Source: Lachnospiraceae bacterium
GTDB taxonomy: Bacteria > Bacillota > Clostridia > Lachnospirales > Lachnospiraceae
DNA: 64,000 nucleotides
NCBI GenBank assembly: GCA_022483465.1
Contig: JAKVNF010000004.1
Coordinates: forward strand, 307,713-371,712
Direction: 5' to 3'
Both the position numbers and the translations under genes were made by a program. Positions 12,311-40,596 of this stretch are shown in pieces. How positions within the stretch are numbered: the first letter of the stretch is position 1; every line of letters starts with the position of its first letter. Under the pieces are notes generated by a model. The model was not told the origin of the DNA, searched no databases, and saw only the letters and a list, made by a program, of their open reading frames with translations.

Positions 12311-12348
12311 AAAAAAGCACCCGCACCGGAATATTCCGGTGCGGGTGC
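12311..12348 (-). terminator. Rho-independent terminator after the 12385..12813 gene
   Basis: A perfect 13-bp stem gcacccgcaccgg / ccggtgcgggtgc with an aatatt loop. On the minus strand it is followed by TTTTTT (the A-run at 12311-12316). Confidence 0.8.
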
Positions 12349-23733: not shown

Positions 23734-23929
23734 ATGGTCTCCCTCTGTCTGCGCACCGGATTTCTGCGGTCTCCCCGCCCGCTCCATAGAAATGGATCTC
23801 ACCCACAGTTTTCGGATACGCCTATATATTTTGTGTCCGATTGTAGTATCGCAGAAAGCACATCTGGTTTCTACCCGGAACGCGCACCTGACTTGTCATA
23901 ATTCAGGCTTGACATCCGGCAAAATTGTG

Positions 23930-23937
23930 CATACCCC
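23930..23937. repeat. Left copy of the 8-bp target-site duplication CATACCCC
   Basis: The sequence reads ...aaaattgtgCATACCCC|CTTAACTTATTG. Confidence 0.75.
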
Positions 23938-25560
23938 CTTAACTTATTGAACTTTTACACCCTAGGCATGCTTCTGGCATTGCCAGGAAGATCGGATATT
24001 GCCCGATCGATCATGTCCAGAGATACGCCACAGGGTGCAAGATCCTGACGCTGCATCTTGGTCAGTTTGTATCTGCGCTGATAGGTTCTGGTTGTCAGAT
24101 CCCGATCGGCTGTGATCTCCTCGTACTGCTCTACAAGCGCTGGAACGGTACTTCGCTTGCGATCTTTAACCCGAAGCTTTTCCGTCTTGGAAAAGATAAG
24201 GGCATGCAGGATGGAGGCTACAAACCAAATGAGACTCTTGGTGTGCAGGGATGGCTCAGAGTGAACGCCCATCTTATCCATTCCGAGAGAGCTCTTCAGC
24301 GCGCGAAATGTTTTCTCAACGCAGTCGCGCCTGGACATCGCCAGCATTGCCTCTTTGGCAGACATCGGTTCACTAGACACAAGGACCATGTATCCGCATT
24401 TGCTGCTGGCACGATCAATGGCTTTCCGATTTCGGGCGAAGGAATCGATCACATAAGACGGAACCTCCTTGTCCTCGCCTGCTCCGCGGCCACGCTTCTT
24501 CACGATGAGGGTTCCCTCCTCGTGGCATTGGATGTCGAAATAGGTGCGGTCATTGTCGAGTTCCTGTTTTGTCATTCGGGTGTGCCGCTTCTCGGCGTTC
24601 TGCAGCCGATGCTCTGCAGCGGCGACATACTTCATGAGTTCGTCGCGGTGTTTTCGCTCGAGCTCCCCGTCCCAGGCAATGTGGAAGCAGGTATTCTGTT
24701 TGTCATCCTCGAACAGCTTTTGCGCAAATGAGAGGCCGAATCTTCCGGTTTCCTCATCATAGTTCTCCGTAATCTTCACTTCGCTGACATGGGCATCAAG
24801 GACTTCATCCACGATTTCCATGTTCTTTCGAAGCATCAGGATGAACCCAAGACCTGCATTCCGCATCTCGGTGATATTCTCTTCCGAGACATATCCACGG
24901 TCCGCGATCATAATGATGTGGAATTTTACCTCTGTGTCCAGGCCATCCTGCAGATTCCTCAGCTCGGTGATCACGTCGGATGCTTCGGCCATGTCGTTCA
25001 GAGAGCCCGGGAAATTCTTGAACGTAACGGGCATGCCATCCCGCTGACGGATTGTGTACTCAGTATTGACCTGGTCCTTATCCGGATCATCCTTGGCGTG
25101 ACCCTTCTGCACAATGAAGATGCCCTCTGCCTGCGAGTTTACGTTGGTAGAGTCATAGCAGACGAACACCCTGCCGTCATCGAGGACATGGCATGCCCAT
25201 TTCTTCTTAAAGAGATTGATCCTGGAGACTGATATCTCTTCTTTCTCAAAGTCCGAGAGGAAGCTGTCGCTGCGGACGGATTCGGCAAAGAGCGCGTGGC
25301 TCTTTGCCCAATGGGGATAATGCTGAAAGACAGCAGATCTTGCTGACAGCATGTACATCGCAAGGTCCATGATCAATTCTGTGTTGGCGCTGCCAAAGAC
25401 CTCGGTCAGAAGATCCAACAGCTGAGATTCCCCAGCGAGAGTCTTCACCACGGAGTACAAGCCAACCGAGATGCAGTCGGACCGTTCCGGATACTCCGTA
25501 TCAGCGGAAGGAGCAGGCAACTCCTGTGCAGGAGATGGATCTCCCGAGGGAGCTTTCCCA
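23938..25560 (-). mobile_element. IS copy A; the 3' 1.6 kb is near-identical to copy B, and the 5' end is divergent with no recognisable terminal repeat
   Basis: It aligns base-for-base with 35788-37410 apart from scattered substitutions. Similarity collapses near 25560, and no ...AATAAGTTAAG end occurs before the lacI-type gene stop at 25777. Confidence 0.8.
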
Positions 25561-25664
25561 CGAGGCGCTGTTGCAATGGCATGATTCTTGTAGTAATTTC
25601 TAAAGATACTTCCCGAAGCATGGATCCAAGCTTCTTCATTTCGTTGTCCTTTGTCTTGCTCCAA
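23955..25664 (-). pseudogene. IS1634/IS4-like DDE transposase, copy A; probably N-terminally defective
   Basis: The C-terminal ~530 aa are nearly identical to the 612-aa copy B protein. The N-terminus (MEQDKGQRNEEAWIHASG...) differs. The homologous upstream segment (...TGDGTLHIETYGMIIWSKTKDNEMKKLG) is in another frame (ORF 25445..25771), which implies a frameshift or truncation. Confidence 0.6.
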
Positions 25665-25776
25665 ATTATCATGCCGTACGTCTCGATGTGTAGGGTTCCG
25701 TCTCCGGTCATCCCGGAAATCTCTCTTGTATTTCTATACTGTATGAGTATTTTTATACCGTATCCGCGCACCCAAC

Positions 25777-26745
25777 CTACTGCTGCTTTGTAGCAGATCT
25801 TGTGGACCCTCTCCAGATTACGTTTACTGCTATTTTAAAGATATCGTTGTTACTGTTGCCAATCAGGTCCTGAACCAGACACTGGGCAGCAAGATATCCC
25901 CGCTCATAGTTCGGAATTTCGATCGTTGTGATCCCGTACTCCCTGGATTCTTCTGTCCCGTCAAAGCCCGTGATTGCAATGTCCTCCGGAATTCTCTTGC
26001 CCATCTGCCGAAACATCTTCATCGCACCGATCGCCATATTATCATTGACGCAGACCAGAATCTCGGGAAGATCTTCCGTCATCAGCATGAGTCTCGCCGC
26101 CTGATATCCGCTCTTTTCCTTGAAATCTCCCAGATAGTATCGGTTTCTTGAAAAGCTGATTCCATGCTCATCCAAGACATCTGAGAAGGCCTTGTAGCGC
26201 TCCTGGTTATCCAGGGTGTCCGGCCCAGCAAGGAAAGCAAACCGTCGATATCCTCTTGCCACCAGACCTGTCATCAGCTCTCTCATGGCACGATAGTTGT
26301 CCACAACAACACTCTTGATGTTCGGTGTGGTAAAGATGCGGTCCATTGTCACAATCCGATAGCCCTCTCTTGCCTTGTCCAAAAGAAGGCTGTCCCTGCA
26401 ATTTCGATCCAAAATGATTGCACCTGACGTATACCGAGAATCCATAAACTTCTCGCAAGAGCCCGTCGTGCTGATGATCAAGTCAAAATGATGCGCATAA
26501 ACGTAATCACTGATTCCATGGATGATTTCAAGATAGAATTTCCTGTCAAAATCACTGAAGTTAAATAGAATCGTGTTAGTATCTTTTTTACTGTATTTTC
26601 TTTCCTTAATATCAAGACCATATTGATGACACAGTTCGAGAATTCTTTGCTTCTGCCTTGCACTGACATTTCCCCTGTCATTGAGCGCATTTGAGACGGT
26701 AGAAGGGGACACTCCGGCCAACTCTGCAATCTCTTTTAATGTCAA
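25777..26745 (-). CDS. LacI-family transcriptional regulator
   Basis: N-terminal HTH MTLKEIAELAGVSPSTVSNALN and a periplasmic-binding-protein-like sugar-sensing core, next to a sugar operon. Confidence 0.9.
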   Translation of the reverse strand: MTLKEIAELAGVSPSTVSNALNDRGNVSARQKQRILELCHQYGLDIKERKYSKKDTNTILFNFSDFDRKFYLEIIHGISDYVYAHHFDLIISTTGSCEKFMDSRYTSGAIILDRNCRDSLLLDKAREGYRIVTMDRIFTTPNIKSVVVDNYRAMRELMTGLVARGYRRFAFLAGPDTLDNQERYKAFSDVLDEHGISFSRNRYYLGDFKEKSGYQAARLMLMTEDLPEILVCVNDNMAIGAMKMFRQMGKRIPEDIAITGFDGTEESREYGITTIEIPNYERGYLAAQCLVQDLIGNSNNDIFKIAVNVIWRGSTRSATKQQ

Positions 26746-26922
26746 GATACGTCCTCCTTCTCTGTTATTGAAGACTTACAAATCCTATCTTCCAGCATCA
26801 TCTCATATTTTCCATCCTGCTGCTGTATCATTAACTAAAAAACAGGCCGGCATTCTCACTTGCTCTGCCGCCTGTGGGAATATCGGTCTGTACCCGTCAC
26901 CGCATGAAATGGAAAATACGCA

Positions 26923-28590
26923 TTACTGTAGAACCAGCGCCTCATAAGGGCGGAGGTTTATGATTTTTTCCACGTTGCTGTCTTTATAATTGGAAATCAG
27001 AATTCCCGCATGATCAAATTCTTCCGGCAGGTTCCAACTTATCTCTTTTTTTGTAAAGTTGCAAATTACCAGGAGCTTTTCTCCGTTCCACTCTCTCTCG
27101 TAACAAAAGAGGTCTGGATTCTCCTGATCCAGGAGTTGGTAGTGGCCATGTACGATGAGATCCGAGTCGTGCCGTAACTGTATCAGTTTTTGGTAATAAT
27201 GGTACACAGAATCGGCATCTTCCTGTTCATCCTTCGCATTGTATCTGACATAATTAGGGTTTACCGGCATCCATGGCGTTCCACTGGAAAAGCCCGCATT
27301 TTTGCCCTCATCCCATTGCATTGGCGTTCTGGCATTATCTCTGCTGATGGTACGCAATGCTGTAAACGCATCTTTCTCGTCAACAATTCCCTTTTCCACT
27401 GCCTGCCTGTAGTTGCCAAGCGATTCATTGTCCTTCATCTCAGAGAGGTTCTTCCATGGGTAGTTTGTCATTCCCAGTTCTTCTCCCTCAAAGATATAGG
27501 GCGTTCCCTGCATCATATGCAGGCATGTTGCAAGCATCTTTGCAGAAAGATCATGATATCTCTCACTATCATCCCCCCACCTTGAAACTATCCTTGGCTG
27601 ATCGTGATTGTCCCAGAACAGGCTGTTCCATGCAATCCCATCTAACTGAGTCTGCCACCGGCTCATAATCTTCTTTAGCTTCACCAGGTTTAGTGGAAGT
27701 TTTTTCACATATCGGCTGAACGCAGGGTCAGCATCAACAGACATGTGCTCGAAGGAAAACACCATGGAGAGTTCACTCCCATCAAGGTTTGCATACTGCT
27801 TTGTCCCCTCAAGCGTGACACCTGGACATTCTCCCACCGTCATTACATCATATCTAGAGAGAACCTTATGATTCATCTCCCGAAGATATTCATGCTCATG
27901 CGGACCATTTGCCACAATGTCAAAAGGCGCATAACCTGTCTTGTCCGCGGGATAGTCCGGGAACGACTGGTCTTTTGAAATCAGACTAATGACATCCATC
28001 CGGAATCCGTCGATTCCTTTTTGCAGCCACCAATCCATCATTCTATAGACCTCATCTCTGAGAACAGGATTATCCCAGTTGAGATCCGGCTGTCTACGAT
28101 CGAACAGATGCATATAAAACTGACCCGTGGTCTCATCCAAGGTCCAGGCAGATCCACCCACACAGGATCCCTGATTGTTTGGTGCATGGCCATTTACCGG
28201 ATCGCGCCAGATGTAATAGTCGCGATACGGATTTTGTATGCTTTTTCTGGATTCTTGAAACCACTGATGCTGATCGGATGAGTGATTAACCACAAGGTCC
28301 AGGATGATCCGAATCTTCATTGCATGGGCTTCTTCCAACAGGCGATCAAAATCCTCCATGGTTCCAAATTCCTCCATGATCGCCTGATAGTCGCTGATAT
28401 CATAGCCGTTATCTACATTTGGAGATTTGTAAATCGGCGAAAGCCAAATGACATCTATCCCAAGATCCTTCAGGTATGGCAGTCTTTGACGAATACCATT
28501 TAAATCTCCTATTCCATCTCCATTGCTGTCCATAAAGCTGCGTGGATAGATCTGATATACTACGCTCCGCTGCCACCATTTCTCCTGCAT
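26923..28590 (-). CDS. GH13 alpha-glucosidase (oligo-1,6-glucosidase / isomaltase type)
   Basis: WWQRSVVYQIYPRSFMDSNGDGIGDLNG, DLVVNHSS, GIDGFRMDVI (nucleophile region), VGECPG (acid/base region) and FWDNHDQPR. These are the canonical GH13 subfamily 31-like conserved regions. Confidence 0.9.
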   Translation of the reverse strand: MQEKWWQRSVVYQIYPRSFMDSNGDGIGDLNGIRQRLPYLKDLGIDVIWLSPIYKSPNVDNGYDISDYQAIMEEFGTMEDFDRLLEEAHAMKIRIILDLVVNHSSDQHQWFQESRKSIQNPYRDYYIWRDPVNGHAPNNQGSCVGGSAWTLDETTGQFYMHLFDRRQPDLNWDNPVLRDEVYRMMDWWLQKGIDGFRMDVISLISKDQSFPDYPADKTGYAPFDIVANGPHEHEYLREMNHKVLSRYDVMTVGECPGVTLEGTKQYANLDGSELSMVFSFEHMSVDADPAFSRYVKKLPLNLVKLKKIMSRWQTQLDGIAWNSLFWDNHDQPRIVSRWGDDSERYHDLSAKMLATCLHMMQGTPYIFEGEELGMTNYPWKNLSEMKDNESLGNYRQAVEKGIVDEKDAFTALRTISRDNARTPMQWDEGKNAGFSSGTPWMPVNPNYVRYNAKDEQEDADSVYHYYQKLIQLRHDSDLIVHGHYQLLDQENPDLFCYEREWNGEKLLVICNFTKKEISWNLPEEFDHAGILISNYKDSNVEKIINLRPYEALVLQ

Positions 28591-28612
28591 TTTCTATTCC
28601 TTTCTTCTCACT

Positions 28613-29467
28613 TCATCCTTTTACTGCACCGGCTGCAACACCTTTTACAATGTATTTCTGTGCACTCAGATAGAAAATAATCACCGGGATGATCGCGAAC
28701 GTCAGCGCCGCCATGGACATATTCCACTGAATGTTATACTGTCCAAAGAACAATGCCATCGCAAGCGGAATGGTCTTGTTCTCAACACTTGTCAACGTGA
28801 GAGACGGAAGGAGGTAGTCATTCCAGATCCAAATGACATTTAAGATGGTAACGGTAACCGTTATCGGCTTTAGAATGGGAAACACCACTTGCCAGAATAC
28901 TCTCCACACACTTGCACCATCTATATATGCTGCTTCCTCCAGGGAGGCAGGAACGGAAGCCCGGATAAAACCGTCATACAGGAAGACGCCCATTCCGGCG
29001 CCAAAACCAATGTACATGAAGATCAGGCCGCCAAGTGAGTCCTTAAAGGCGATTCCCGTCGCCTTTTGCATGCTGTTCATCTCCTGCATCAAAGGCATCA
29101 TGATGGTCTGGAAGGGGACCAGCATTGTGACAATCAAAACGGAAAACAGAAATTTGCTCAGTCTGTTTCCAGAACGCACAAACATCCATGCAGTCATAGA
29201 TGTGAGTACGAGGATGATGATGCAAGAGATCACTGTGACAATCAGGGAGTTTTTGAACGCAATAAAGAAGTTCATCTTCTGAAATGCGCCCAGGTAATAC
29301 TCCATCGTAAAGTGCTTCGGCAAAGCAAGGAAGTTTTCATACATCTCTGATCGACTCTTGAAGGAGTTAACCACGATGATATAAACCGGATAGAGCCAGA
29401 TGCAACAGAACACTATGAGAAGGATGTTCCAAAGGACTCCAAGTCTCTTCTTTATCGAGGTTGTCAT
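28613..29467 (-). CDS. Carbohydrate ABC transporter permease (MalG-like)
   Basis: 284 aa with 6 TM segments and an EAA-loop-like motif (EEAAYIDGASVWRVFWQVVFP). Confidence 0.85.
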   Translation of the reverse strand: MTTSIKKRLGVLWNILLIVFCCIWLYPVYIIVVNSFKSRSEMYENFLALPKHFTMEYYLGAFQKMNFFIAFKNSLIVTVISCIIILVLTSMTAWMFVRSGNRLSKFLFSVLIVTMLVPFQTIMMPLMQEMNSMQKATGIAFKDSLGGLIFMYIGFGAGMGVFLYDGFIRASVPASLEEAAYIDGASVWRVFWQVVFPILKPITVTVTILNVIWIWNDYLLPSLTLTSVENKTIPLAMALFFGQYNIQWNMSMAALTFAIIPVIIFYLSAQKYIVKGVAAGAVKG

Positions 29468-30333
29468 AATGTCACCTCCTTGCTCTTCGTCAGCCTCACC
29501 TGAAGCAGTGTGATGACTGCGATGATGAAGAACAGAATGACCGCTTTTGCCTGACCGTAACCAAAGTTACTCTTGGTAAAGATCTCATTAAAGATGTTCA
29601 TGGCAACCAGTTGCGTCGCATTATTCGGTCCGCCACCTGTCAGAGAAACATTAACGTCATACATCTTGAAACAGTTTGAGAGCGTCATGAAAAGGCAGAT
29701 TGTGATAGATGGCATAATCAGTGGAAGTTTTACGTAAAATAGTGTCTGAATGCCATTAGCTCCATCCACAGCAGCCGCCTCAATCACATCATCTGAGATT
29801 GCCTGAAAGCCGGCAATATAGATGATCATCATATATCCCGCAAGCTGCCAGGTTGTCACAACAATCAATGCGTAAAAAGCAAATTTCTTGTCCACCAGCC
29901 AATTGAAAAAGAGATTATCCATTCCAGTCAGGCTTGCAAGACTTGACATCCCCTCTCCAAGAACATAGTTCCATATGTAGCCCAGGATCAGTCCACCAAT
30001 CAGATAAGGCATGAAGATCATGGCCCTTGCCACGTTTCTGGTCTTCAACCTAGATGTAACGATGATGGCAAACAACAGTGCCAAAATATTGACAATCACG
30101 ACCGTGATCAACGTAAAGATCGTTGTCCTTAAGAGAGAGCTCAGAAAGAGCTTATCCGAGAAAATGCGGGCGTAATTCTGAAGCCCAACAAAGGTTTTCG
30201 GAGACTTCCCCAATCCGTTCCATTTCACAAACGAATATCCGATTCCAGTGACGAAGGGAATAAGTTCTATGATGGCGAAAATGATCATCAGTGGGGCAGT
30301 GAACAGAATGTACCATCCTTTTTTTATTTTCAT
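29464..30333 (-). CDS. Carbohydrate ABC transporter permease (MalF-like)
   Basis: The start was refined to MKIKKGWYILFT (ATG 30333). EAA motif IEAAAVDGANGIQTLFYVKLP. It overlaps the downstream permease gene by 4 nt. Confidence 0.85.
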   Translation of the reverse strand: MKIKKGWYILFTAPLMIIFAIIELIPFVTGIGYSFVKWNGLGKSPKTFVGLQNYARIFSDKLFLSSLLRTTIFTLITVVIVNILALLFAIIVTSRLKTRNVARAMIFMPYLIGGLILGYIWNYVLGEGMSSLASLTGMDNLFFNWLVDKKFAFYALIVVTTWQLAGYMMIIYIAGFQAISDDVIEAAAVDGANGIQTLFYVKLPLIMPSITICLFMTLSNCFKMYDVNVSLTGGGPNNATQLVAMNIFNEIFTKSNFGYGQAKAVILFFIIAVITLLQVRLTKSKEVTL

Positions 30334-30416
30334 ACCTTTTGTCCTTTGCAGTGTGATGAAATGATAAGGGGTGCTGCCAACAGGCAGCACCCCCATAGAT
30401 CAGGCATTCATGCCGA

Positions 30417-31751
30417 TTATTCAGACGCAGCCTGAACAAAATTGTCATTCAATGCTCGTAAGTAATCATCCGCCGTCATATCTGGATTGGAGAAGAACTC
30501 CTCAGTCGTGGGTGCCAGGTAGGTGGTCACAATGCCTGCCGGCCAGCTGGTGTTGAATGTCCAAGGAAGGATATTTCCGCTTGTAATAGCATCCGAAACG
30601 GTCTGAGAGAGAGGATCAAGGTTGTCTGCTGTCATGCCTTCGATGACCGGGACAAAACCAAACTTGTTCATCAGATAGTCAGTACCAGTTTCGCTGGTAT
30701 AGAGCCAGTTCAGGAAGTCTTTGCCAAGCTGCTGCTCTTCTTCAGTTGCATCGGAATTGACTGCCCAGACAGCCGGACGGCTGACCGCAATTTTATCGTT
30801 TCCATCAATAGGAAGTGCTGCAATGCCCATGTCAAAGCTCACATCATAATCTGCGAACATCGAATAGCACCAGTTGCCCTGATGGATGGTTGCTGTCTTT
30901 CCTGTTGCAAAATTACCGACGTTTGTGTCGTAGGTTACCTCAAGAGGATTTGTCTCATTTGCACGAATTGCTTCAAATAATTTTCCAAGCTGCTGGAACT
31001 CATCCACATCTGCGATATTGACTTCACCGTCATAAACTTTCTGGCAAAATGCATCCGGATCATCCTGCAGAGCGAATGGCGTATTCAGAATATGGCCAAT
31101 CAGGAAATATGCTTCCTGGGAAAGGCCAACCCCTTCTACGCCGCTGTCCTTCTCGGTTTCAATATAGGAGACGAGATCATCAATGCTGGAAATCTTAGAG
31201 GGATCATAGAGATCCTTGTTGTAAACGAGACCAAAGCCCTCTGCAGTGGTTGGAATACCAATCACGGTTCCGTCGTCATTCTTTGCCAGGAGAGAATCAT
31301 TCTCCTTGTCGATGAAGGAAAGATCTGTAAGCGGAGACATATAGTCTTTCAACTCTGCAATCTCCGTATCAGATTCAACCGTAAAAATTGTGGGGCCGGA
31401 TTCAGATGACAGATACGTCTTAAGGTTCTGGTAATAGTCATCTCCGGAGATCTGCCATACATCGACAGCCACACCCGTCTCTGCCTCATAGTCTTTTGCC
31501 ATGGCAACCATCTGATCGTAAATTTCCGTCTTGTTCTGGAAAATGGTTATCTTCTGATCACCTGACGAGGTGGCACTGTCTGAGGCCGCTTCTGTCGTAT
31601 TCTGGGATGCTGTATCATCCGCAGAAGTTGCCGCTGCAGTTGCTTCTGAAGAAGCCGAGCTATCTGCTGTGCTGGAAGAGCCGCACCCTGCAAGGATAGA
31701 CGCACCGACTGCAAGAGTCATAACAAGCGATAATACTTTTTTCTTTTTCAT
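30417..31751 (-). CDS. Extracellular sugar-binding lipoprotein of the ABC transporter
   Basis: The start was refined to MKKKKVLSLVMTLAVGASILAGC (lipobox LAGC, RBS GGAGGG), followed by a Ser/Thr/Ala-rich linker and a family-1 solute-binding fold pattern. Confidence 0.85.
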   Translation of the reverse strand: MKKKKVLSLVMTLAVGASILAGCGSSSTADSSASSEATAAATSADDTASQNTTEAASDSATSSGDQKITIFQNKTEIYDQMVAMAKDYEAETGVAVDVWQISGDDYYQNLKTYLSSESGPTIFTVESDTEIAELKDYMSPLTDLSFIDKENDSLLAKNDDGTVIGIPTTAEGFGLVYNKDLYDPSKISSIDDLVSYIETEKDSGVEGVGLSQEAYFLIGHILNTPFALQDDPDAFCQKVYDGEVNIADVDEFQQLGKLFEAIRANETNPLEVTYDTNVGNFATGKTATIHQGNWCYSMFADYDVSFDMGIAALPIDGNDKIAVSRPAVWAVNSDATEEEQQLGKDFLNWLYTSETGTDYLMNKFGFVPVIEGMTADNLDPLSQTVSDAITSGNILPWTFNTSWPAGIVTTYLAPTTEEFFSNPDMTADDYLRALNDNFVQAASE

Positions 31752-32275
31752 ACTTCCCTCCATTTTCTGTTTGATGGATGTTGTAAAATTTTCCCCTTGC
31801 CTCAGGTAAATTCTTCTCTGAGACTGACTATAGTATTACCCATTGTCTCTATATTAGTCAATATGCTGTAATAAATTTCGGAATTAGTGCTAATAATTGT
31901 GTATAATGTCTTCATAAAATGCTGAAAATATAAATTTTATGAGTAAAATTCATTATAAATTTATGTACTACTATTGTAAATTTACTATAATTGCATTACT
32001 TGTGCTCCTCCAGATATCAATTACCCCGATCAGTCACCTACCTGTTTGCCATTTATCCTAAGACGGCGCCAAAAGTAGCACCATATTTCAGCAAGATATT
32101 TTCATTGTATCCTTTATCTCTAATTCCCGGGTATGTTGATAACTTTACACTTTTCAACTTTCCATCAACCGCGGGCTTTTTGGAACTTCGCCCGCGGAAA
32201 ATAATGGGCTAAATATTACGGATCCATGGTAATCGGCTCCTGTTTTTGGAACTCAATGATAACTTCGCTTGTTGC

Positions 32276-34507
32276 TCAGGCCCCGTCTCGCTTTGTCCCG
32301 GAAAGATCTGCTTCCCTGGCCTCACGCTCAAGTGTCTTCTTGTTCTTGGATCCCGGTGGCCTGCCTGGCTTTCTCTTGACGTGTACGATACCTGCAGCTG
32401 CCTCGGCTGCCTCTCGCTCGAGGGTCTTCTTGTTCTTGGATCCAGGCGGTCTGCCCCGGCCTCTCTTTTTCGTTATTCCGTCTGAAGAGTCGGCTGTCCG
32501 CGGTACAGAAGTTGCATCCTGCTTTCCTTTGTCCGGAGCAGGTATTGCACCATTGCCATCTGTGATGACATCTGTTGGCTTTTCACCTGAGACGCCGGCT
32601 TCTGGTACTGTCAACGGATCGCTGCTATTCGTGTCGAAAGAAGCAACGGATTTTCCACTGGCATCATCCTCAGCAATCCTGAGCCCTGCCTTTTCCGCCG
32701 CTTTTCTCACGCGAATCAGCTCGTTTGCCTTGCGCTTTTTCTCGATTTCATCATCCGAGAGATAAGCTTTGCGTGCAAATGCGTACTTCCTTGTGAGTTT
32801 GTTTTTCTCACCCTCTTTGAAGACATAGGTGAGCGCATTGTCCTTCCGATTGATCTTGAAAGGGCTGGCAATCCGGAAGGCATCGTAGAAATCTCTGGCC
32901 TGTCGGATCGGAATCTCGGGGAGAATGACCTCATCAAAAACCTCCGCCTTCTGACCACGCAGTTCCAGAAACAGGCTGGAGGGAGATTCCCTGAAAACCT
33001 GCCCAACTGGGATCTGTTCAAGGAAGCTCTTCCCGCTCTTGTCGGTCATGGCATCCTCGGAAGGTTCATCCAGAGCTTTGGCAAGTGCCGGGGATACCTC
33101 CACATACCTGCTGTCCACCATACCGAGACGATTCTTGATGACGATAACAAGAAACGTGGCAATGAACGCAATCAGCATGTGTCCTTTCAGGGTCTCCATG
33201 TTGTGCTGCCGTACCGGAAGGAACTTTGCATAGTTCTTGCCAAAGTCAAAGTACTGCTCGATATCCTGGCGGACATAGTATTCCGGAAGGACCTCCTCTA
33301 CAGGAAGGTCTCTTGTAGTGACGATGGCAAAAACACCAAGCTGCTCAGAAATCTCGAGGATCTGGTCACAGGTCATCTTCCTGGCAGACTTCGTCTTCAT
33401 CAGCCGTGTGTACTTGAAGGAGCTGCTGTCGCGGTCTCTGCAGAGATAAACAAACCCTGTGACGTCCTTCCCGGTTTCCTGATCGACGGCGATCTTCGTC
33501 TCGACCTTGACGATATAGAGAATGCGGTCCCTGTACCGAATCGCATTTGTGTCATCTTTAAGCTCCGCGGCATGCTCATCCAGGATCTGCTTGTACAGAT
33601 CATAGGTGGGATTCAGTCGGGTCATGAAGTCAATGCCAGAGAGAACAAGTTTCTCCATGGTAGAGGGACAGCAGTATCCTGCATCACCAATGGCATAAGA
33701 AACATCGCAGTGATACTGTTTCGCCAGCTCAATGATGCGCTGTGTCGTGGAAACATCCACGATGTTGCCCGGGATGATCTCATAGAAGATCGGCAGTCCG
33801 GTAGACCGCTGAACAAGGGCAATCATCCGGAACTCGATATTGATATCGCCCTCATGGTTGCTGACACGGGTGACCGGGAGATCACACTTGTTTGGCATTC
33901 CGGTGCTGTCGATCAGGATAGAAACCTCCTGATCCGTTGAATTCAGCAGATACTTGATATGCGCAAGAAGGAAGTCCCTGCGCTGGCTGTCGTCGCCGAG
34001 CTTTGCCAGCATATCACTGATCCGCTGGCTGTAAATGTTGGCCTTCGGGAACAGGTACGATGCATAGTTCTGTCGATACCACCTGTCGGCATTCACGTTC
34101 GCCTTTCCCTCAAGGATGTAATAGAAAAGGAGGGCGTACAGAGTGTCCCGATTCACATATTTGAGAGAGTCAAGGACTTCGTTATAGCCGATCGAATCGA
34201 TCAGTGTTTTCAGGAAGTAGGAGTCGCCGAAGTCCACAAGCACATGCCGCTCTTTTCGCGCTCCGTCAGGGTTCTGTTCCGCGTTCGGGACATCCTTTGC
34301 CTCAAGTGCAGTGATGCTCTGATCATCCGGATTGAAATGGAAGTAACCTTCATCCCGTTTCCAGAAGATAAGGCGGTCCTTGTCGATCACCTTTCCGAGG
34401 TACTTCTGCCCCTGCTTCCTGGGGCCCTGATCCGTCTGAATCGTAGAGCCTGGCCATACAGCAACAAGTGTGCCGGATGAGTTATTGCGATAAGAAATGC
34501 TAGGCAT
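32276..34507 (-). CDS. IS1634/IS4-like DDE transposase (743 aa) with a C-terminal duplicated AT-hook-like tail
   Basis: The transposase core is homologous to the other IS proteins in the window (e.g. GLPIFYEIIPGNIVDVST..., DAGYCCPS). The C-terminus carries two GRPPGSKNKKTLEREA repeats. The putative element ends are ATAACTT at about 32259 and AAGTTAT at about 34526 (approximate). Confidence 0.75.
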   Translation of the reverse strand: MPSISYRNNSSGTLVAVWPGSTIQTDQGPRKQGQKYLGKVIDKDRLIFWKRDEGYFHFNPDDQSITALEAKDVPNAEQNPDGARKERHVLVDFGDSYFLKTLIDSIGYNEVLDSLKYVNRDTLYALLFYYILEGKANVNADRWYRQNYASYLFPKANIYSQRISDMLAKLGDDSQRRDFLLAHIKYLLNSTDQEVSILIDSTGMPNKCDLPVTRVSNHEGDINIEFRMIALVQRSTGLPIFYEIIPGNIVDVSTTQRIIELAKQYHCDVSYAIGDAGYCCPSTMEKLVLSGIDFMTRLNPTYDLYKQILDEHAAELKDDTNAIRYRDRILYIVKVETKIAVDQETGKDVTGFVYLCRDRDSSSFKYTRLMKTKSARKMTCDQILEISEQLGVFAIVTTRDLPVEEVLPEYYVRQDIEQYFDFGKNYAKFLPVRQHNMETLKGHMLIAFIATFLVIVIKNRLGMVDSRYVEVSPALAKALDEPSEDAMTDKSGKSFLEQIPVGQVFRESPSSLFLELRGQKAEVFDEVILPEIPIRQARDFYDAFRIASPFKINRKDNALTYVFKEGEKNKLTRKYAFARKAYLSDDEIEKKRKANELIRVRKAAEKAGLRIAEDDASGKSVASFDTNSSDPLTVPEAGVSGEKPTDVITDGNGAIPAPDKGKQDATSVPRTADSSDGITKKRGRGRPPGSKNKKTLEREAAEAAAGIVHVKRKPGRPPGSKNKKTLEREAREADLSGTKRDGA

Positions 34508-34643
34508 TTATTCGTCCTCAAGTTATTGTTTGTGATAACTTATTGTACGATATTTTGCCCGGCTTCGCAATAGTAGTAGCCAAGAAACACCGTGCTTTAG
34601 GCACTTTTTTGAAAATATTGTGCAGAAATATTCCCGAGAGTTA

Positions 34644-35747
34644 TCAAGTTACCCGGGAAATAGAGTTTATGAAAGCTTTTAGAGAGAACGTACTGGGTAT
34701 CTCGATATCCATCTGTTTATAGAATTCTCGGACACTCTTGTTCGGCACTTCAACTTCGATATCTCCATTTCGATTTTTTAAGCACATGAGCGATGAAGTA
34801 CTTCCGATTAGTCGAGTAGTTGCTATCCCTACTCCAAGGAGCTCCTTGCGTAAAAATAGAAAGGCAATTTCCTCGATAATATCCGAGAACAGCTTACCCT
34901 TTACTCTTTCTGCTGTCCATTTTACAATTGGCAGGATATCGAGATATTCCTTCTCTGTTTTGAAAACTGTTTCGATATCGGCTCTGGCAAAATAGGAATC
35001 CAAAGTATCGGCAGGTGTCATGTTTTTGTTAGTGATTAGAGCGAAGTAACCGAACTTTACGTCAAACCAGTTTTTATCAGCCATGCTGAGCTTCTCGTAT
35101 GCTTCTGGATCTTTCATCCTGTTCTGACGGCCAAGCTCAAGAGCATTGTCTTTATCTACATATACATATGCATTTTCATAATTCTCAAAGATCTTTACCG
35201 TTTTGCAATATCCAAAATAGGTATGACCATGACGGTCAAACTGATATTTTGAGTTTGGTATCAGACGTTTTAGTTCATTGTATAGCTGCTTATATGGGTA
35301 TCCTCTTTTTGCAGGCATTCTTGCAAGCATTGTTCGAAATTTCTTTCCCTCTTCCGGAGAATCCGTCTTTGACGGAAGGTGAAACATCTCGATCAAAGGT
35401 TTGCAAATATAACCAGCATCCAAAACAAGGCTGTCAATCCGTACATCCAATATTTCGGCAACATTAGATATGATAAATGTGATCGTACTGAGATCCAGAA
35501 GATTTCCAGGTATTACATCGAACCAGACCGGTATTCCGGTACTTTCATCCAAAACCAAGATAAGGCGGGTCTGAATAGAAGTATAAGAAACGCCACGAGA
35601 GCACAAGGCATTAAACGGATTATTTTTGATATCATTCGGCAATGGTGTTGAATCTGCATAACATCCAACGCCAAAATCAGGATTTGATTTTCTTTGGTAT
35701 TTAATGAAGCTCTTAAAGAATGTTACCTTAAGTTGATTATCTCCCAT
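34644..35747 (-). pseudogene. 5'-truncated IS1634/IS4-like transposase (C-terminal two-thirds only)
   Basis: The 367-aa ORF starts within the catalytic region (GIPVWFDVIPGNLLDLST..., LDAGYICKP), parallel to residues ~230+ of the 743-aa homologue. Its missing N-terminal part would lie where IS copy B begins (35788). A terminal motif GATAACTTATTGTAC is at about 34534. Confidence 0.65.
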
Positions 35748-35787
35748 TGTTTCGAAGTAAGGGAAATCTGAACCAAGCCGTTCAACC

Positions 35788-37804
35788 TTAACTTATTGAA
35801 CTTTTACACCCTAGGCATGCTTCTGGCATTGCCAGGAAGATCGGATATTGCCCGATCGATCATGTCCAGAGATACGCCACAGGGTGCAAGATCCTGACGC
35901 TGCATCTTGGTCAGTTTGTATCTGCGCTGATAGGTTCTGGTTGTCAGATCCCGATCGGCTGTGATCTCCTCGTACTGCTCTACAAGCGCTGGAACGGTAC
36001 TTCGCTTGCGATCTTTAACCCGAAGCTTTTCCGTCTTGGAAAAGATAAGGGCATGCAGGATGGAGGCTACAAACCAAATGAGACTCTTGGTGTGCAGGGA
36101 TGGCTCAGAGTGAACGCCCATCTTATCCATTCCGAGAGAGCTCTTCAGCGCGCGAAATGTTTTCTCAACGCAGTCGCGCCTGGACATCGCCAGCATTGCC
36201 TCTTTGGCAGACATCGGTTCACTAGACACAAGGACCATGTATCCGCATTTGTTGCTGGCACGATCAATGGCTTCCCGGTTTCGGGCGAAGGAATCGATCA
36301 CATAAGACGGAACCTCCTTGTCCTCGCCTGCTCCGCGGCCACGCTTCTTCACGATGAGGGTTCCCTCCTCGTGGCATTGGATGTCGAAATAGGTGCAGTC
36401 ACTGTCGAGTTCCTGTTTTGTCATTCGGGTGTGCCGCTTCTCGGCGTTCTGCAGCCGATGCTCTGCAGCGGCGACATACTTCATGAGGTCGTCGCGGTGT
36501 TTTCGCTCGAGCTCCCCGTCCCAGACGATGTGGAAGCAGGTATTCTGTTTGTCATCCTCGAACAGCTTTTGCGCAAATGAGAGGCCGAATCTTCCGGTTT
36601 CCTCATCATAGTTCTCCGTAATCTTCACTTCGCTGACATGGGCATCAAGGACTTCATCCACGATTCCCATGTTCTTTCGAAGCATCAGGATGAACCCAAG
36701 ACCTGCATTCCGCATCTCGGTAATATTCTCTTCCGAGACATATCCACGGTCCGCGATCATAATGATGTGGAATTTTACCTCTGTATCCAGGCCATCCTGC
36801 AGATTCTTCAGCTCGGTGATCATGTCGGATGCTTCGGCCATGTCGTTCAGCGAGCCCGGGAAGTTCTTGAACGTGACGGGCATGCCATCCCCCTGACGGA
36901 TTGTGTACTCAGTATTGACCTGGTCCTTATCCGGATCATCCTTGGCGTGGCCCTTCTGCACGATGAAGATGCCCTCTGCCTGCGAGTTTACGTTGGTAGA
37001 GTCATAGCAGACGAACACCCTGCCGTCATCGAGGACATGGCATGCCCATTTCTTCTTAAAGAGATTGATCCTGGAGACTGATATCTCTTCTTTCTCAAAG
37101 TCCGAGAGGAAGCTGTCGCTGCGGACGGATTCGGCAAAGAGCGCGTGGCTCTTTGCCCAATGGGGATAATGCTGAAAGACCGCAGATCTTGCTGACAGCA
37201 TGTACATCGCAAGGTCCATGATCAATTCTGTGTTGGCGCTGCCAAAGACCTCGGTCAGAAGATCCAACAGCTGAGATTCCCCAGCGAGAGTCTTCACCAC
37301 GGAGTACAAGCCAACCGAGATGCAGTCGGACCGTTCCGGGTACTCCGTATCAGCGGCAGGAGCAGGCAACTCCTGTGCAGGAGATGGTTCTCCCGAGGGA
37401 GTTTTACCATAGATCTTGTAGTAGGACTCGTTGGCATACATCCGCCGGTCGCTCTTCCAGTTAGAACCCGGATGCAGTGCCATACCGATGCACTGCTTTT
37501 TGTGATCTGCGTGCTTGCCGGTTCCGTTTTTACTGTCCACCCATTCGGTGGATGTATTGACATAGACATACCCAAGCTTGTTGACAGATACGCTGATTGG
37601 TATCTCTACGATGTTGCTTTCCGTCTTTGCAATGCGTGGCATAGTTGCTCCTTTACTAGGGTTTAATTATACCCTAGCGAAGAGCAACTTTCAAGTGTCA
37701 TGTGGTGTACAATTGCGGCCAGTTCTCCTTGATTTTCTCGGAAAATCAGGTCGTTAGGCAACTGTGTTTACACCCACTGGGGTGTAAACAGCGAATAAGT
37801 TAAG
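35788..37804 (-). mobile_element. IS copy B; a complete IS1634/IS4-like element of about 2.0 kb
   Basis: It has imperfect ~24-bp terminal inverted repeats (CTTAACTTATT...TTTACACC at both ends) and an intact 612-aa transposase ORF. Confidence 0.8.
35804..37642 (-). CDS. IS1634/IS4-like DDE transposase, copy B (intact)
   Basis: 612 aa, full length relative to copy A, with DDE-type blocks (VCYDSTN..., MIADRGYVSE...). Confidence 0.85.
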   Translation of the reverse strand: MPRIAKTESNIVEIPISVSVNKLGYVYVNTSTEWVDSKNGTGKHADHKKQCIGMALHPGSNWKSDRRMYANESYYKIYGKTPSGEPSPAQELPAPAADTEYPERSDCISVGLYSVVKTLAGESQLLDLLTEVFGSANTELIMDLAMYMLSARSAVFQHYPHWAKSHALFAESVRSDSFLSDFEKEEISVSRINLFKKKWACHVLDDGRVFVCYDSTNVNSQAEGIFIVQKGHAKDDPDKDQVNTEYTIRQGDGMPVTFKNFPGSLNDMAEASDMITELKNLQDGLDTEVKFHIIMIADRGYVSEENITEMRNAGLGFILMLRKNMGIVDEVLDAHVSEVKITENYDEETGRFGLSFAQKLFEDDKQNTCFHIVWDGELERKHRDDLMKYVAAAEHRLQNAEKRHTRMTKQELDSDCTYFDIQCHEEGTLIVKKRGRGAGEDKEVPSYVIDSFARNREAIDRASNKCGYMVLVSSEPMSAKEAMLAMSRRDCVEKTFRALKSSLGMDKMGVHSEPSLHTKSLIWFVASILHALIFSKTEKLRVKDRKRSTVPALVEQYEEITADRDLTTRTYQRRYKLTKMQRQDLAPCGVSLDMIDRAISDLPGNARSMPRV

Positions 37805-37812
37805 CATACCCC
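37805..37812. repeat. Right copy of the 8-bp target-site duplication CATACCCC
   Basis: The sequence reads ...CGAATAAGTTAAG|CATACCCCttttccgg. Confidence 0.75.
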
Positions 37813-37843: not shown

Positions 37844-37872
37844 TTGTACATTCTTTCTTCTTCCGGTATAAT
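37844..37872 (+). promoter_or_regulatory. Sigma-70-type promoter for the 37924 gene
   Basis: TTGTAC (37844-37849), a 17-nt spacer, then TATAAT (37867-37872). The RBS AGGAGA lies upstream of the ATG at 37924. Confidence 0.55.
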
Positions 37873-37923: not shown

Positions 37924-40596
37924 ATGTATCCTTCCTATGTCATAACACGCCTCTTCTTTGAGGCGTCCTCCGTATTTTTCTGCGGAATCATCTGCCTGTA
38001 CCTGTTTCTGCTCTACCAGGAGACCACCCCCACCGTCAAGGTGTTCCGAAAGTTCTCCGTCACGGTCCTGGCTGAGAACATCATCGACCTGGTCTGCGGC
38101 TACCTGAATGGCACGGTGACCTACTGGAAAGTCCTAGTGGTGCCGGTCCCCGTCCTCATGCTCGTCAACCTGGTCGACGTGGTGGGCGGCGCCCTGTGCA
38201 GCTACTACTTTCTGCAGTACGCGGCGATCCACGCGGGGCAGAAACCGGACGACAGGATGCGCAATCTCCTGTCCCGACTCGTCGTCTTCGCCAACGGGCT
38301 CCTCATGTTCGTCAACCTCTTCAACGGCTGCGTCATGTCGATCCCCGAGGATGAGATCACGCTGCACCACGGTTCCCTCTACCTGGTCGGAATCTATCTT
38401 CCCTCGATGATTCTCCTCTTCTGGGGCATCCTCCTCATCCTGCGCCACTTTCGAAAATACTCGCTGACACAGCGGATTCTCCTTCTTGCCACCGCCTTTC
38501 TGGTCGCCCTCCTGATCTGGCTCCAGGCCGTCGTCACCGACGTGTACCTCGTGCTCTTTGCCGTCAGCCTGGGGGAGCTGGGCCTTCTCTTTACGCTGGA
38601 GACCCCCGACTACATGGCTCTGAAGAAGGCCCTCTCGAGACTGCAGAAGACCCAGGATACCCTGCGGGTCGCCAGGCAGCGGGCCGAGGACGCGAGCATC
38701 GCCAAGAGCGAGTTCATCATCAGCACCGCGGACCAGTTCCGCAACCCGATCTCCGCAATCCTGGGCTTCTCCCGGCTCATCGCCTCCGGCACCGCCGAGC
38801 CGAAGATCCGGGACTACGCCGAGAAGGTGCAGGAGGCGGGACAGCGCCTGCGGAAGGTCTTTGACAGCATCGTCTACTACACCGCATCGGACTACCATGA
38901 GGATGAGGCCTATGCGCGGCCGAAGGTTGCCTCCATCGAGGACAAGGAGCTCTTCACCGACTACATGGAGGAGTGGAGCACCTGGGAGTACGCCCAGAGT
39001 GAGGTGGGATCCGGCAGCAAAAAGGATGCGAAGGCAGCCAGGGAGCAGGACGTCCTCGCCTTTGCGCAGGCGAATGCCCCGGTGGAGGAGGGAAAATCCC
39101 TCTTCTCCCGCCCGGTCAGTGTCCTTGCCATCGACGACAACAACATGAACCTCTTCCTCATCAGCAACCGGCTGCGCCGCTTCGGCGCCCAGGCCGACAT
39201 CGCCAACAGCGCCGAGAGTGCCCTGTCCATGGCGGCGGAGAAGAGCTATGACCTGATCCTGTTGGATCGGCTCCTGCCCTCCATGAGCGGGCCGGAACTC
39301 CTGGAGGCGATGCGGGAGCAGAAGCTCTGCGAGGGAACTCCGGTCATCCTCATGAGTGCGGGGACCGGGGAGACCAGGGAGGAACTGCAGCGCGAGGGCT
39401 TTGCCGGGAGTCTTCCCAAGCCCTTTACGCTCCACCAGCTCCGGGACCTTTTGATTCAGGTCCTGCCGGACAGCGTCAACCGAGACCTTCCCGAGGTGCA
39501 GGAGGTGCTGTCCGGCAAAGAGGACGCCCCCAAGGAGGAGGAGACCGCGGAGCAGGCACCGGAGGAGGATGCGCCCGAGGAGAAGGAGCCCGTCATCCCG
39601 GCCTCCCTGCGCCCGGCACTCTGCCTCTGCGGACTGGTCCTGATCCTGGCCTACCTTCTCCTCATTACTCTCCTTGTGCGGGGGAATCTGCGGGTTCTTC
39701 CCATGGCAGTCGGCTGCGCCGGGTATCTGGTGCTTGATCTTCTCTACGGCAGGCTGATCGGCGCTTCCTTCAAAATAAGCACGCTTCTGCCGCTCCCGCT
39801 CCTTCTTCTGTGCATTCTGGCGGGGACCTTCGGCGCCCGCGACAGTGTGGCCTTCATCTTCTTCCCGGTCCTTCTGTTCACACCGCTGCTTTTGCAGCGC
39901 GCCTCCCCCGCCTGGAACCGCTGGGTGCTGCTTCTCTCCTCCGCGCTGTTTCTCTATCTGGACGATACCGTAAAGACCTGGGACCTCTTCTATAGGGACC
40001 TCATCCACACGGTATCTGCCCTGATCCTTGCGCTCGTCTTCTCCCTGGTGCTGCAGAGGCAGCGGAAGCGGGAGGAAGATCTCATTTCCCAGTACCGGGA
40101 ACTCTCCGAGTACGACCAGATGACCCACACGAAGAACTACGACCGGATGCGGGAGGACTTAAAGCCCATCTTCGGACAGAAGGTTACCTTCCTCTACACC
40201 TCCATCGACCGCTTCCGGCTGATCTGTGACACCTGCGGCACCCGGGAGGCCAACGATCTGCTCGCCTTCTTTGCCGCCACCCTCCAGAAGATCTTCGGGG
40301 AGGAGCACTGCTACCGGTACTACGGCGCGGTCTTCCTCGTGATCCAGCAGGATCTGTCCCTGGAGGAGCTGCGCAAAAAGTGCAGCGCGTTCGGCAGTGC
40401 CGTGTCCCGCTACGAGATCGCCCACCGCAGGCTCCACCCCACCTGCAGCGGCAGTTACGACAGGATCCTGCTCACCGGAGAGGAGGACCTGCAGAGCCTC
40501 AACCACCGGCTGGGCATGAAGCTCTACGAGATCCAGGCCCTGGGAAACAAGCGCTTCGAGCAGGCGGAGCGAAGCCCCTTCTCCGAGGGGGACTGA
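37924..40596 (+). CDS. Multidomain membrane signalling protein: N-terminal multi-TM sensor, His-less HisKA-like dimerisation domain, REC, second TM block, degenerate GGDEF-like domain
   Basis: The H-box position reads SEFIISTADQFRNPISAILGF, with no phospho-acceptor His, and no HATPase_c is recognisable. REC pattern VLAIDDNNMN...DLILLDRLLPSMSG...KPF. The C-terminal domain has the GGDEF position as YRYYGAVFLVI. Confidence 0.7.
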   Translation: MYPSYVITRLFFEASSVFFCGIICLYLFLLYQETTPTVKVFRKFSVTVLAENIIDLVCGYLNGTVTYWKVLVVPVPVLMLVNLVDVVGGALCSYYFLQYAAIHAGQKPDDRMRNLLSRLVVFANGLLMFVNLFNGCVMSIPEDEITLHHGSLYLVGIYLPSMILLFWGILLILRHFRKYSLTQRILLLATAFLVALLIWLQAVVTDVYLVLFAVSLGELGLLFTLETPDYMALKKALSRLQKTQDTLRVARQRAEDASIAKSEFIISTADQFRNPISAILGFSRLIASGTAEPKIRDYAEKVQEAGQRLRKVFDSIVYYTASDYHEDEAYARPKVASIEDKELFTDYMEEWSTWEYAQSEVGSGSKKDAKAAREQDVLAFAQANAPVEEGKSLFSRPVSVLAIDDNNMNLFLISNRLRRFGAQADIANSAESALSMAAEKSYDLILLDRLLPSMSGPELLEAMREQKLCEGTPVILMSAGTGETREELQREGFAGSLPKPFTLHQLRDLLIQVLPDSVNRDLPEVQEVLSGKEDAPKEEETAEQAPEEDAPEEKEPVIPASLRPALCLCGLVLILAYLLLITLLVRGNLRVLPMAVGCAGYLVLDLLYGRLIGASFKISTLLPLPLLLLCILAGTFGARDSVAFIFFPVLLFTPLLLQRASPAWNRWVLLLSSALFLYLDDTVKTWDLFYRDLIHTVSALILALVFSLVLQRQRKREEDLISQYRELSEYDQMTHTKNYDRMREDLKPIFGQKVTFLYTSIDRFRLICDTCGTREANDLLAFFAATLQKIFGEEHCYRYYGAVFLVIQQDLSLEELRKKCSAFGSAVSRYEIAHRRLHPTCSGSYDRILLTGEEDLQSLNHRLGMKLYEIQALGNKRFEQAERSPFSEGD

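Follow-up and report, generated by a model that had tools for sequence, protein, structure and literature searches.

The genomic window analysed here is a stretch of 64,000 nucleotides from contig JAKVNF010000004.1 (positions 307,713 to 371,712) of a metagenome-assembled genome (MAG) of a Lachnospiraceae bacterium (assembly GCA_022483465.1). Between two divergently transcribed signalling genes, it carries an alpha-glucoside utilization operon that is bracketed by two copies of one insertion sequence (IS), which we call IS_A. The whole block at window positions 23938-37804, 13,867 bp in length, is probably a compound (composite) transposon of the IS1634 family. Every gene of this insert lies on the minus strand, on which the complete IS_A is followed by the remnant of another element (IS_C), a promoter with the operon for a transporter and a glycoside hydrolase of family 13 (GH13), a LacI-type regulator, and finally a 5'-truncated IS_A, while a third element (IS_B) is nested inside. 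The individual features are as follows, with lengths of proteins in amino acids (aa) and open reading frames abbreviated as ORFs:

21886-23802, minus strand: left host gene, hybrid histidine kinase/receiver (HisKA, HATPase_c and Response_reg domains)
23930-23937, no strand: left target copy CATACCCC, probable 6-bp core ATACCC at 23931-23936
23938-25560, minus strand: 5'-truncated IS_A (left arm), 1623 bp (alignment; DDE_Tnp_1 match)
25561-25776, no strand: 216-bp spacer from the truncated arm to the LacI stop codon (contiguous with the cargo in contigs L025 and L030)
25777-26745, minus strand: LacI-family regulator, 322 aa (Pfam LacI and Peripla_BP_1/3)
26923-28590, minus strand: GH13 alpha-glucosidase of the oligo-1,6-glucosidase type, 555 aa (Alpha-amylase domain, E = 1e-166)
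28613-29467, minus strand: ATP-binding cassette (ABC) sugar permease, 284 aa (BPD_transp_1)
29464-30396, minus strand: ABC sugar permease, 310 aa (BPD_transp_1)
30417-31763, minus strand: solute-binding lipoprotein, 448 aa, lipobox LAGC (SBP_bac_1/SBP_bac_8)
31952-31980, minus strand: promoter-like site of the operon, TTTACA-17-TATAAT, 11/12 (consensus scan only)
32118-34665, minus strand: IS_B, intact IS1634-family element, 2548 bp (NF033559, ends, duplication)
34507 to 32276, minus strand: IS_B transposase, 743 aa (NF033559, 118.5 bits, cut-off 100)
34666-35786, minus strand: IS_C remnant, third IS1634-type element (DDE_Tnp_1; partial NF033559 match of 64.7 bits, below cut-off)
35747 to 34644, minus strand: IS_C ORF, 367 aa, C-terminal two-thirds of a transposase with about the N-terminal third missing
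35787-37804, minus strand: complete IS_A (right arm), 2018 bp (alignment, stand-alone copies, NF033559)
37642 to 35804, minus strand: IS_A transposase, 612 aa (NF033559 IS1634 family, 183.6 bits, cut-off 100)
37694-37666, minus strand: promoter-like site of IS_A (promoter scan)
37805-37812, no strand: right target copy CATACCCC, probable core ATACCC at 37806-37811
37924-40596, plus strand: right host gene, HisKA-receiver-GGDEF protein, 890 aa (domain search)

Arms and nested elements of the insert

The preliminary description of this DNA had proposed that two direct IS copies bracket the cargo, and a blastn comparison within the window recovers them as a gap-free direct repeat of 1624 bp with 98.46% identity (23937-25560 versus 35786-37409; 25 mismatches, 0 gaps). 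In a self-comparison of the window, these arms are the sole long direct repeat of the region, and they enclose an interior of 10.2 kb. That the copies differ by nothing but scattered substitutions holds insofar as the repeat is free of gaps, but the substitutions are not evenly scattered: all 25 of 25 are confined to 24403-25557, while the outer 466 bp (23937-24402) are identical between the arms. The right copy lies where it had been placed except for its start, which is at 35787 and not at 35788, and the left copy is 5'-truncated. Beyond the repeat, the right copy runs on for another 395 bp to 37804, with the terminal inverted repeat CTTAACTTATT and then TTTACACCC. As had been predicted, the outermost ends of the block form an inverted-repeat pair with 22 of 28 matching positions, the first 11 of them identical (23938-23965 compared to the reverse complement of 37777-37804, i.e., CTTAACTTATTGAACTTTTACACCCTAG versus CTTAACTTATTCGCTGTTTACACCCCAG). 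The lower G+C content that had been described for the insert is also evident, with 0.473 for the whole insert, 0.457 for the operon, and ca. 0.52 for the IS arms versus 0.60 and 0.59 in the two flanks.

Counting in a conserved terminal C on either side (35786 and 37805), the complete IS_A would measure 2020 bp instead of 2018 bp. Its ends (CTTAACTT) fit the form C-----YT of the IS1634 family, whose members are typically 1500-2000 bp long and create target duplications of 5-6 bp (PMC2266710). The 612-aa transposase ORF is intact, scores above the IS1634 cut-off, and is identical in at least 8 flank contexts, and it may encode an active enzyme. On other metagenome contigs (L007-L015), at least 8 stand-alone copies with different, unrelated flanks match the complete copy at 100% identity, which indicates that IS_A has probably been active recently. 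In the host MAG, the exact IS_A transposase is represented by one accession only. The flanks of the right arm, ...GCCGTTCAAC on the inner and CATACCCC on the outer side, do not form a duplication around this arm alone.

The truncated left arm keeps the outer inverted repeat (23938-23965) and the transposase codons from ca. residue 78 to the stop (ORF end at 23955). The 395 bp missing from it encode residues 1-77 of the transposase and include the promoter-like site as well as the other (inner) inverted repeat, and the same truncation junction is found in L025, L026, and L030-L039. We considered that this arm might continue as a diverged homologue past 25560 but rejected this idea, as local alignment found only a shared 30 bp. 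By the same approach, the adjoining spacer at 25561-25776 showed no homology to the 5' part of IS_A, and these 216 bp are best viewed as part of the mobile unit.

Two more DDE transposase ORFs (743 aa and 367 aa) are present in the insert that had been absent from the preliminary description. The larger one belongs to IS_B, which has inverted repeats matching at 25 of 30 positions, ends of the form C-----YT (CTCTATTT and CTCTAATT), a length above the typical family range, and a 5-bp duplication, TTTAT, at 32113-32117 and 34666-34670. Because the exact IS_B transposase is found under four accessions of the MCH40xxxxx series to which the host MAG belongs (versus one for IS_A), and because IS_B is missing from L025, L026, and L030 where its target is uninterrupted, the simplest explanation is that the host already had several copies of IS_B, one of which jumped into the unit once the latter had arrived. 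The smaller ORF is part of the IS_C remnant, which adjoins the inner end of IS_A, is kept in all copies of the unit (L025, L026, L030, and L009), and probably marks how the unit first came together. All three elements are assigned by their sequences to the IS1634 family, though IS_C by a partial match below the cut-off. Other marks of this family are that the complete YREK motif is missing and that a long spacer separates the second D from the E.

As a separate observation, the 3' end of the IS_B transposase gene contains a 70-nt direct repeat (32308-32377 and 32398-32467, 77% identical) that encodes a duplicated K(R/K)GRGRPPGSKNKKTLEREA segment. This segment is AT-hook-like (GRP core), and such a C-terminal extension is unusual for an IS1634-type transposase.

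The target site in carrier and empty-site strains

The octamer CATACCCC is found directly outside both outer ends of the insert (23930-23937 and 37805-37812), and 8 bases at two given positions would match by chance with a probability of ca. 1.5e-5. Evidence that the insert was acquired comes from sister strains, whose loci we found via variant 890-aa proteins of the same 90% cluster. Ten of these 11 loci (L057-L066) carry an empty site with a single CATACCCC and no IS, and their flanks match the window at 98.8-99.6% identity. In these strains, a stretch of 262 bp without any of the operon lies between the kinase gene and the 890-aa gene (sequence GGCAAAATTGTGCATACCCCTTTTCCGGCGCAGC), and the empty site that had been predicted from the window, AAAATTGTGCATACCCCTTTTCCGGCGCAGC, occurs verbatim in all 10 conspecific contigs, as it should if the block had been acquired at one target site. 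The eleventh locus (L067) has a scaffold gap of 10 N at 861-870 over the target with contigs ending 42 and 53 bp away, which may reflect a mixed population of empty and occupied sites in the sample.

Presence of the insert is therefore polymorphic among strains. Across ca. 40 contigs of the locus we saw only empty or whole-unit alleles and never IS_A alone. In carrier contigs with identical flanking proteins the IS is always found at the same junctions, with some contigs breaking inside and others spanning all of it, and an exact-protein look-up showed that the insert proteins carry consecutive accessions (MCH4035683 to MCH4035691). The full two-copy structure is present in separate assemblies including contigs of 88,970 bp (L001/L006, one indel compared to the window) and 203,688 bp (L016/L024). 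Relatives at 79-82% aa identity have kept the gene order on both sides without any insert (MFS, LytTR regulator, receiver-domain gene, 890-aa homologue, MatE, HAD, flavin reductase, SNF), and their intergenic region aligns through the target. Another relative (L021, 77% aa identity) agrees on the right side as far as the contig reaches. A search of the genome_contigs collection with the 890-aa protein returned only two relatives with 77-84% identity, and the species itself is not in that collection. In metagenome_contigs, a 24-mer of the empty site gave 0 matches, which is uninformative since a 29-mer of the IS_A end that is known from Joint Genome Institute (JGI) contigs L010 and L025 also gave 0.

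The preliminary description had reported a target duplication of 8 bp. While eight identical bases are indeed present on both sides, the true IS_A duplication probably comprises the 6 bp ATACCC plus one conserved terminal base for each IS end, because stand-alone copies share 6 bp in their flanks and this length is the norm of the IS1634 family. In every stand-alone copy a G directly flanks both of the CTTAAC...GTTAAG ends, and two pairings of stand-alone flanks share exactly 6 bp at a distance of one base from the ends (ACTGCT and AAACAG, one of them on a single contig, L014), although this evidence is limited by the chimeric flanks of several metagenome contigs. The window fits the same scheme with GGGTAT in IS orientation, i.e., ATACCC on the plus strand, and duplications of 6 bp are also made by ISPfe2 and the composite transposon Tn6097 (PMC3281130). 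The reconstructed empty site is identical under both readings. Among more distant elements the duplication length is not readable, either because the right end is cut by another IS (L046, 82% identical transposase) or with only one boundary that can be placed (L047-L056, 70%).

On the left side of the insert, the kinase has 615 aa when read from the ATG at 23733 and is called with 633 aa in sister strains, and its gene is oriented like all genes of the insert. The domains of this protein and of the 890-aa protein bear out that the insertion sits between two signalling genes. It lies upstream of both, 204 bp from the kinase ATG and 112 bp from the 890-aa gene. A distance of 135 bp to the kinase start, as first given, applies solely to a GTG at 23802, whereas gene callers place the start at 23733 or further upstream. 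The 890-aa gene has a promoter-like site (37845-37872) that starts 33 bp from the duplicated 8-mer, in line with the earlier estimate of about 30 bp before its -35 element, and whose -10 element TATAAT is conserved in relatives. Conversely, a conserved box containing TTGACA (23912-23917) is now 13.9 kb away from this promoter. The insert thus splits the divergent promoter region of the two signalling genes with its own genes aimed at one of them, which may alter host signalling. All insert genes point at the kinase gene, and a scan of the stretch from 23955 to 23733 detected nothing that resembles a terminator. Transcription that starts in the insert could therefore continue into the kinase gene by read-through.

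Mobility of the unit and possible routes of its arrival

A search for the same cargo elsewhere had been suggested, and the 16.7-kb contig L025 indeed contains both IS_A arms, complete and truncated, together with the operon and the IS_C remnant, with internal junctions identical to those of the window but in another genomic context. To its right follow a fragment of an IS200-type transposase gene and then GH43 and GH35 genes, with a similar situation in L026. The cargo of L025 differs from that of the window at 3 of 6555 positions (0.05%), while that of L030 is 100% identical over 6657 bp. Because the same unit with 99.95% identical cargo is thus found in a different genomic context, it is mobile as a block. 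Several features by which composite transposons are recognized are present: arms made of the same IS, inverted outer ends, a flanking duplication with a matching empty site, and the same block at different sites. No match to the whole 13.9 kb was found in the plasmid collection (megablast) and no match to the IS end in viral_contigs (scan), so there is no evidence of a plasmid or phage vector in these two collections.

Three contigs with unusual junctions deserve a separate description, all of which are short-read contigs. In L036 (1-5843) and L038 (1-3333; both from ENA), the GH13 gene from window position 27989 is followed by LacI, the truncated IS_A, IS_C, and the binding-protein gene up to 31547. 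The same 52-bp terminus of another IS (GAAACTGCGCGCAATTAACTCATGC...) is found in inverted orientation at both ends of L036, while L038 shows only the end on the GH13 side. This joint could be that of a circle or tandem captured by another IS, or it could be an assembly artefact. In L003 (1-1160, corresponding to window 36250-37409), an IS next to the 890-aa gene has the alleles of the right arm up to position 229 and those of the left arm from position 448. This contig may be a real recombinant, e.g., a cargo-deleted hybrid IS, or the product of an assembler switch in an interval of 219 bp without single-nucleotide polymorphisms (SNPs).

The L025 locus itself has been rearranged by further IS activity. 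Regions 1-104 and 11407-11592 of this contig show that the outer left end, that of the complete IS_A, is without its terminal CTTAAC and that the truncated arm adjoins a piece of 61 aa from the N-terminus of an IS200-type (Y1) transposase. We rejected a simple insertion into this transposase gene because the 104 bp on the left do not seem, by eye, to encode the remainder and because the terminal CTTAAC is missing.

We consider it probable that the unit arrived at its present location by one-step transposition from its outer ends. In this scenario, the unit would have been pre-assembled elsewhere and then recently been inserted, in one strain of an uncultured Lachnospiraceae species, into the 262-bp divergent promoter region between the two signalling genes. 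The transposase of the intact arm would have acted on the outermost ends, i.e., at 37804 (left inverted repeat) and at 23938 (right inverted repeat, in the truncated arm), so that the whole block could move by one cut-and-paste event from incoming DNA. The staggered cut would have duplicated ATACCC (seen as CATACCCC), and IS_B would later have jumped into the IS_C remnant with a 5-bp duplication of its own. We favour this route because the requirements in cis and in trans are present, only empty and full alleles were seen among the ca. 40 contigs of the locus, and the host MAG shows no sign of further IS_A copies. In addition, Tn6097 provides a precedent for an IS1634-family pair that moves an entire composite.

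Several observations weigh against such a simple history. The arms of the window and L025 differ at 38-41 of 1623 positions (2.3-2.5%) in a mosaic pattern, ca. 50 times the divergence of the cargo. Hence no single simple history can apply to both arms and cargo, and besides any transposition of the unit one has to assume that the arms also recombined, or underwent gene conversion, with further copies of IS_A. In its outer part, the truncated arm is canonical in the window, variant in L025, and canonical from position 933 in L026, although these three composites have near-identical cargo, and in the window the whole right arm as well as the outer 466 bp of the truncated arm correspond to the canonical stand-alone IS. 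L025 is the only other full context of the unit, and it has no flanking duplication while the outer end of its complete IS_A lacks the terminal CTTAAC, so that there is no second clean event of unit transposition. Furthermore, L036 and L038 show the permuted junction of LacI, truncated IS_A, IS_C, and the binding-protein gene described above. As regards a donor lineage, the next nearest GH13 among 5.8 billion protein clusters is only 68% identical.

Much of this would be explained if a stand-alone IS_A flanked by the ATACCC duplication had already been resident at the locus and had been joined, through RecA-type recombination in the shared 1624 bp, by a circle (or other incoming DNA) composed of the cargo and a truncated IS_A. 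Such an event predicts exactly the observed product, i.e., a complete IS, the cargo, and a truncated IS with the old duplication outside. It could also account for the mosaic arms with their excess divergence, the variable outer part of the truncated arm among composites, the canonical sequences in the window, the circle- or tandem-type joint in L036 and L038, and the fact that L003 changes just once, somewhere from position 229 to 448, from alleles of the full arm to those of the truncated arm. Like one-step transposition, this route had been named in the preliminary description. However, we see it as a serious but rather unlikely possibility because no allele with IS_A alone was found among the ca. 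40 contigs of the locus and because nothing in the host MAG, with its single accession of the IS_A transposase, shows that IS_A was resident before the cargo. The SNPs do not require it either: the incoming copy needs to have the canonical tail already under either route, and the SNP pattern of the arms is compatible with both one-step transposition and homologous recombination and cannot place a crossover. With 4-7 differences per 1.1 kb versus 0-3 per 6.6 kb, the divergence of the IS_C remnant also exceeds that of the cargo, which shows that IS sequences are generally homogenized by gene conversion, and such conversion among IS paralogues in earlier hosts would explain the mosaicism without this route. 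Finally, the switch in L003 falls into the longest SNP-free interval of the arms, as that of an assembly chimera would. A broader form of the same idea is that the unit spreads mainly as a recombination-dependent translocatable circle of the cargo and a single truncated IS_A that homes into resident IS_A copies, an IS26-like lifestyle by way of homologous recombination with the joint in L036/L038 and the mosaic arms as its footprints. We regard this as doubtful.

One could also imagine that two IS_A copies had inserted independently around a native operon, as would fit arms of the same orientation of which one is damaged, an outcome that may arise when ISs accumulate at a locus, with the matching 8-mers arising by coincidence or rearrangement. 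The conspecific empty sites with neighbouring genes 262 bp apart, one CATACCCC, and no operon refute this scenario, which is further contradicted by the G+C content of the insert (0.47 versus 0.60 in the flanks), the lack of an own duplication at the right arm, and the existence of the block elsewhere, so that we give it next to no credence. Similarly improbable in the extreme is that a single IS was duplicated or misjoined during assembly. Short-read contigs do often break inside the IS (L002-L005 and L017-L020) and L003 mixes the alleles of both arms, but the two copies differ at 25 positions and in length, their two-arm layout is also found in another lineage (L025 and L026), and the spanning assemblies, i.e., the contigs of 88,970 bp and 203,688 bp as well as cluster members on contigs of ca. 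832 kb, refute an artefact.

Known relatives, the cargo operon, and other features of the window

The closest described system is Tn6097 of Paracoccus ferrooxidans, in which two copies of the IS1634-family element ISPfe2 enclose a core of 13,991 bp (PMC3281130). Its movement as one unit has been captured in an experiment, and the repeats that it made were 6 bp long like those of the single IS (PMC3281130). Both elements have in common IS1634-family arms, a size of ca. 14 kb, and metabolic cargo rather than antibiotic resistance genes. However, the arms of Tn6097 are identical, complete, and convergent, while those described here are direct repeats with 98.5% identity of which one is 395 bp shorter. 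In addition, the host of Tn6097 is an alphaproteobacterium, whereas the present unit resides in a Firmicute, carries an alpha-glucoside ABC/GH13 cargo and two nested IS1634-type elements, and is known from sequence alone. It would thus extend the IS1634-family composites from one experimentally captured case to anaerobic Firmicutes.

Compound transposons with one defective arm are well known from Tn5 (IS50L/IS50R) and Tn10 (IS10L/IS10R). Similar to these, one arm of the present unit would supply the transposase and the other mainly an outer end, the limits of the unit would be set by its outer ends, and the functional arm could also move alone. By analogy, the N-terminally truncated transposase fragment of 501 aa might damp transposition like the inhibitor protein of Tn5. 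In contrast, the arms of Tn5 and Tn10 are inverted, full-length, and members of the IS4 family proper with 9-bp duplications, while here we find direct arms of the IS1634 family, one of them truncated, and a 6-bp (apparent 8-bp) duplication.

A different comparison is that with IS26 of the IS6 family, which moves by replicative or conservative cointegration mediated by its transposase and whose translocatable units carry a complete IS. The direct arms, a possible circle of the cargo with one IS, and a possible integration into or beside a resident copy that keeps an old duplication are reminiscent of IS26 units and pseudo-compound transposons, and the joint in L036/L038 resembles an IS26-type unit. 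However, the single IS_A copy at this joint has neither the start of the transposase gene nor one of the ends, and any such circle could therefore integrate only by homologous recombination of the host.

The cargo of the unit had been described as a LacI regulator, a GH13 enzyme, two ABC permeases, and a binding lipoprotein, all of which are confirmed by Pfam domains and the lipobox. The oligo-1,6-glucosidase type of the GH13 enzyme is equally well supported, as its best solved structure is the oligo-1,6-glucosidase 1UOK (E = 2e-202, full length) and all of its top PDB matches (1UOK, 9U7V, and 4M56) are oligo-1,6-glucosidases. The translation contains the motifs GFRMDVIS, VGECPG, and NHDQPR, of which GFRMDVIS has a DV in region II as known from alpha-1,6-specific enzymes. 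Among NCBIfam models, the protein belongs to a broad TreC-like subfamily, scoring above the cut-off of this subfamily but below that of the TreC equivalog. Among named homologues, the closest come from Clostridium sp. and from Lachnospiraceae MAGs.

From these annotations, the cargo should enable the cell to take up and hydrolyse isomaltose or short alpha-1,6-glucosides. In Firmicutes, it is common for sugar transporters of the CUT1 type to share one host ATPase. Because no gene for an ABC ATPase is carried on the insert, the transporter would use such a shared, host-encoded ATPase. The gene set resembles the oligo-1,6-glucosidase/CUT1 ABC alpha-glucoside operons of other Firmicutes (e.g., Bacillus MalL or B. 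cereus O16G, PDB 1UOK), with which it shares the full-length alignment of the GH13 enzyme, a LacI regulator, the binding lipoprotein, and two permeases without a dedicated ATPase. Compared to these operons, however, the nearest homologue of this GH13 outside of the transposon is just 68% identical. The exact LacI protein was found in 29 blocks of the collection, always within this operon, and the exact binding protein occurs in many samples. The operon is known only in IS-flanked form.

Taken by itself, the unit is a clear but ordinary composite transposon and does not overturn the current understanding of such elements. Its value lies in being a clean natural example, in a gut or rumen member of the Lachnospiraceae, of a carbohydrate-utilization operon gained at the strain level via an IS-bounded unit, where carrier and empty-site strains can be compared directly because their flanks are ca. 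99% identical.

Two unrelated features were observed elsewhere in the window. On the minus strand at 7684-11793, an ORF of 1369 aa is filled with repeats (8132-9390 and 10640-11217), among them tandem repeats of 12, 24, and 48 bp. It contains ca. 70 copies of a 12-bp unit whose reverse complement encodes a Ser/Ala/Glu-rich repeat of the SASE type, while the second block has a period of 75/150 bp, and the product is probably a repetitive surface protein. The self-comparison of the window also revealed a perfect palindrome of 32 bp at 12317-12348.

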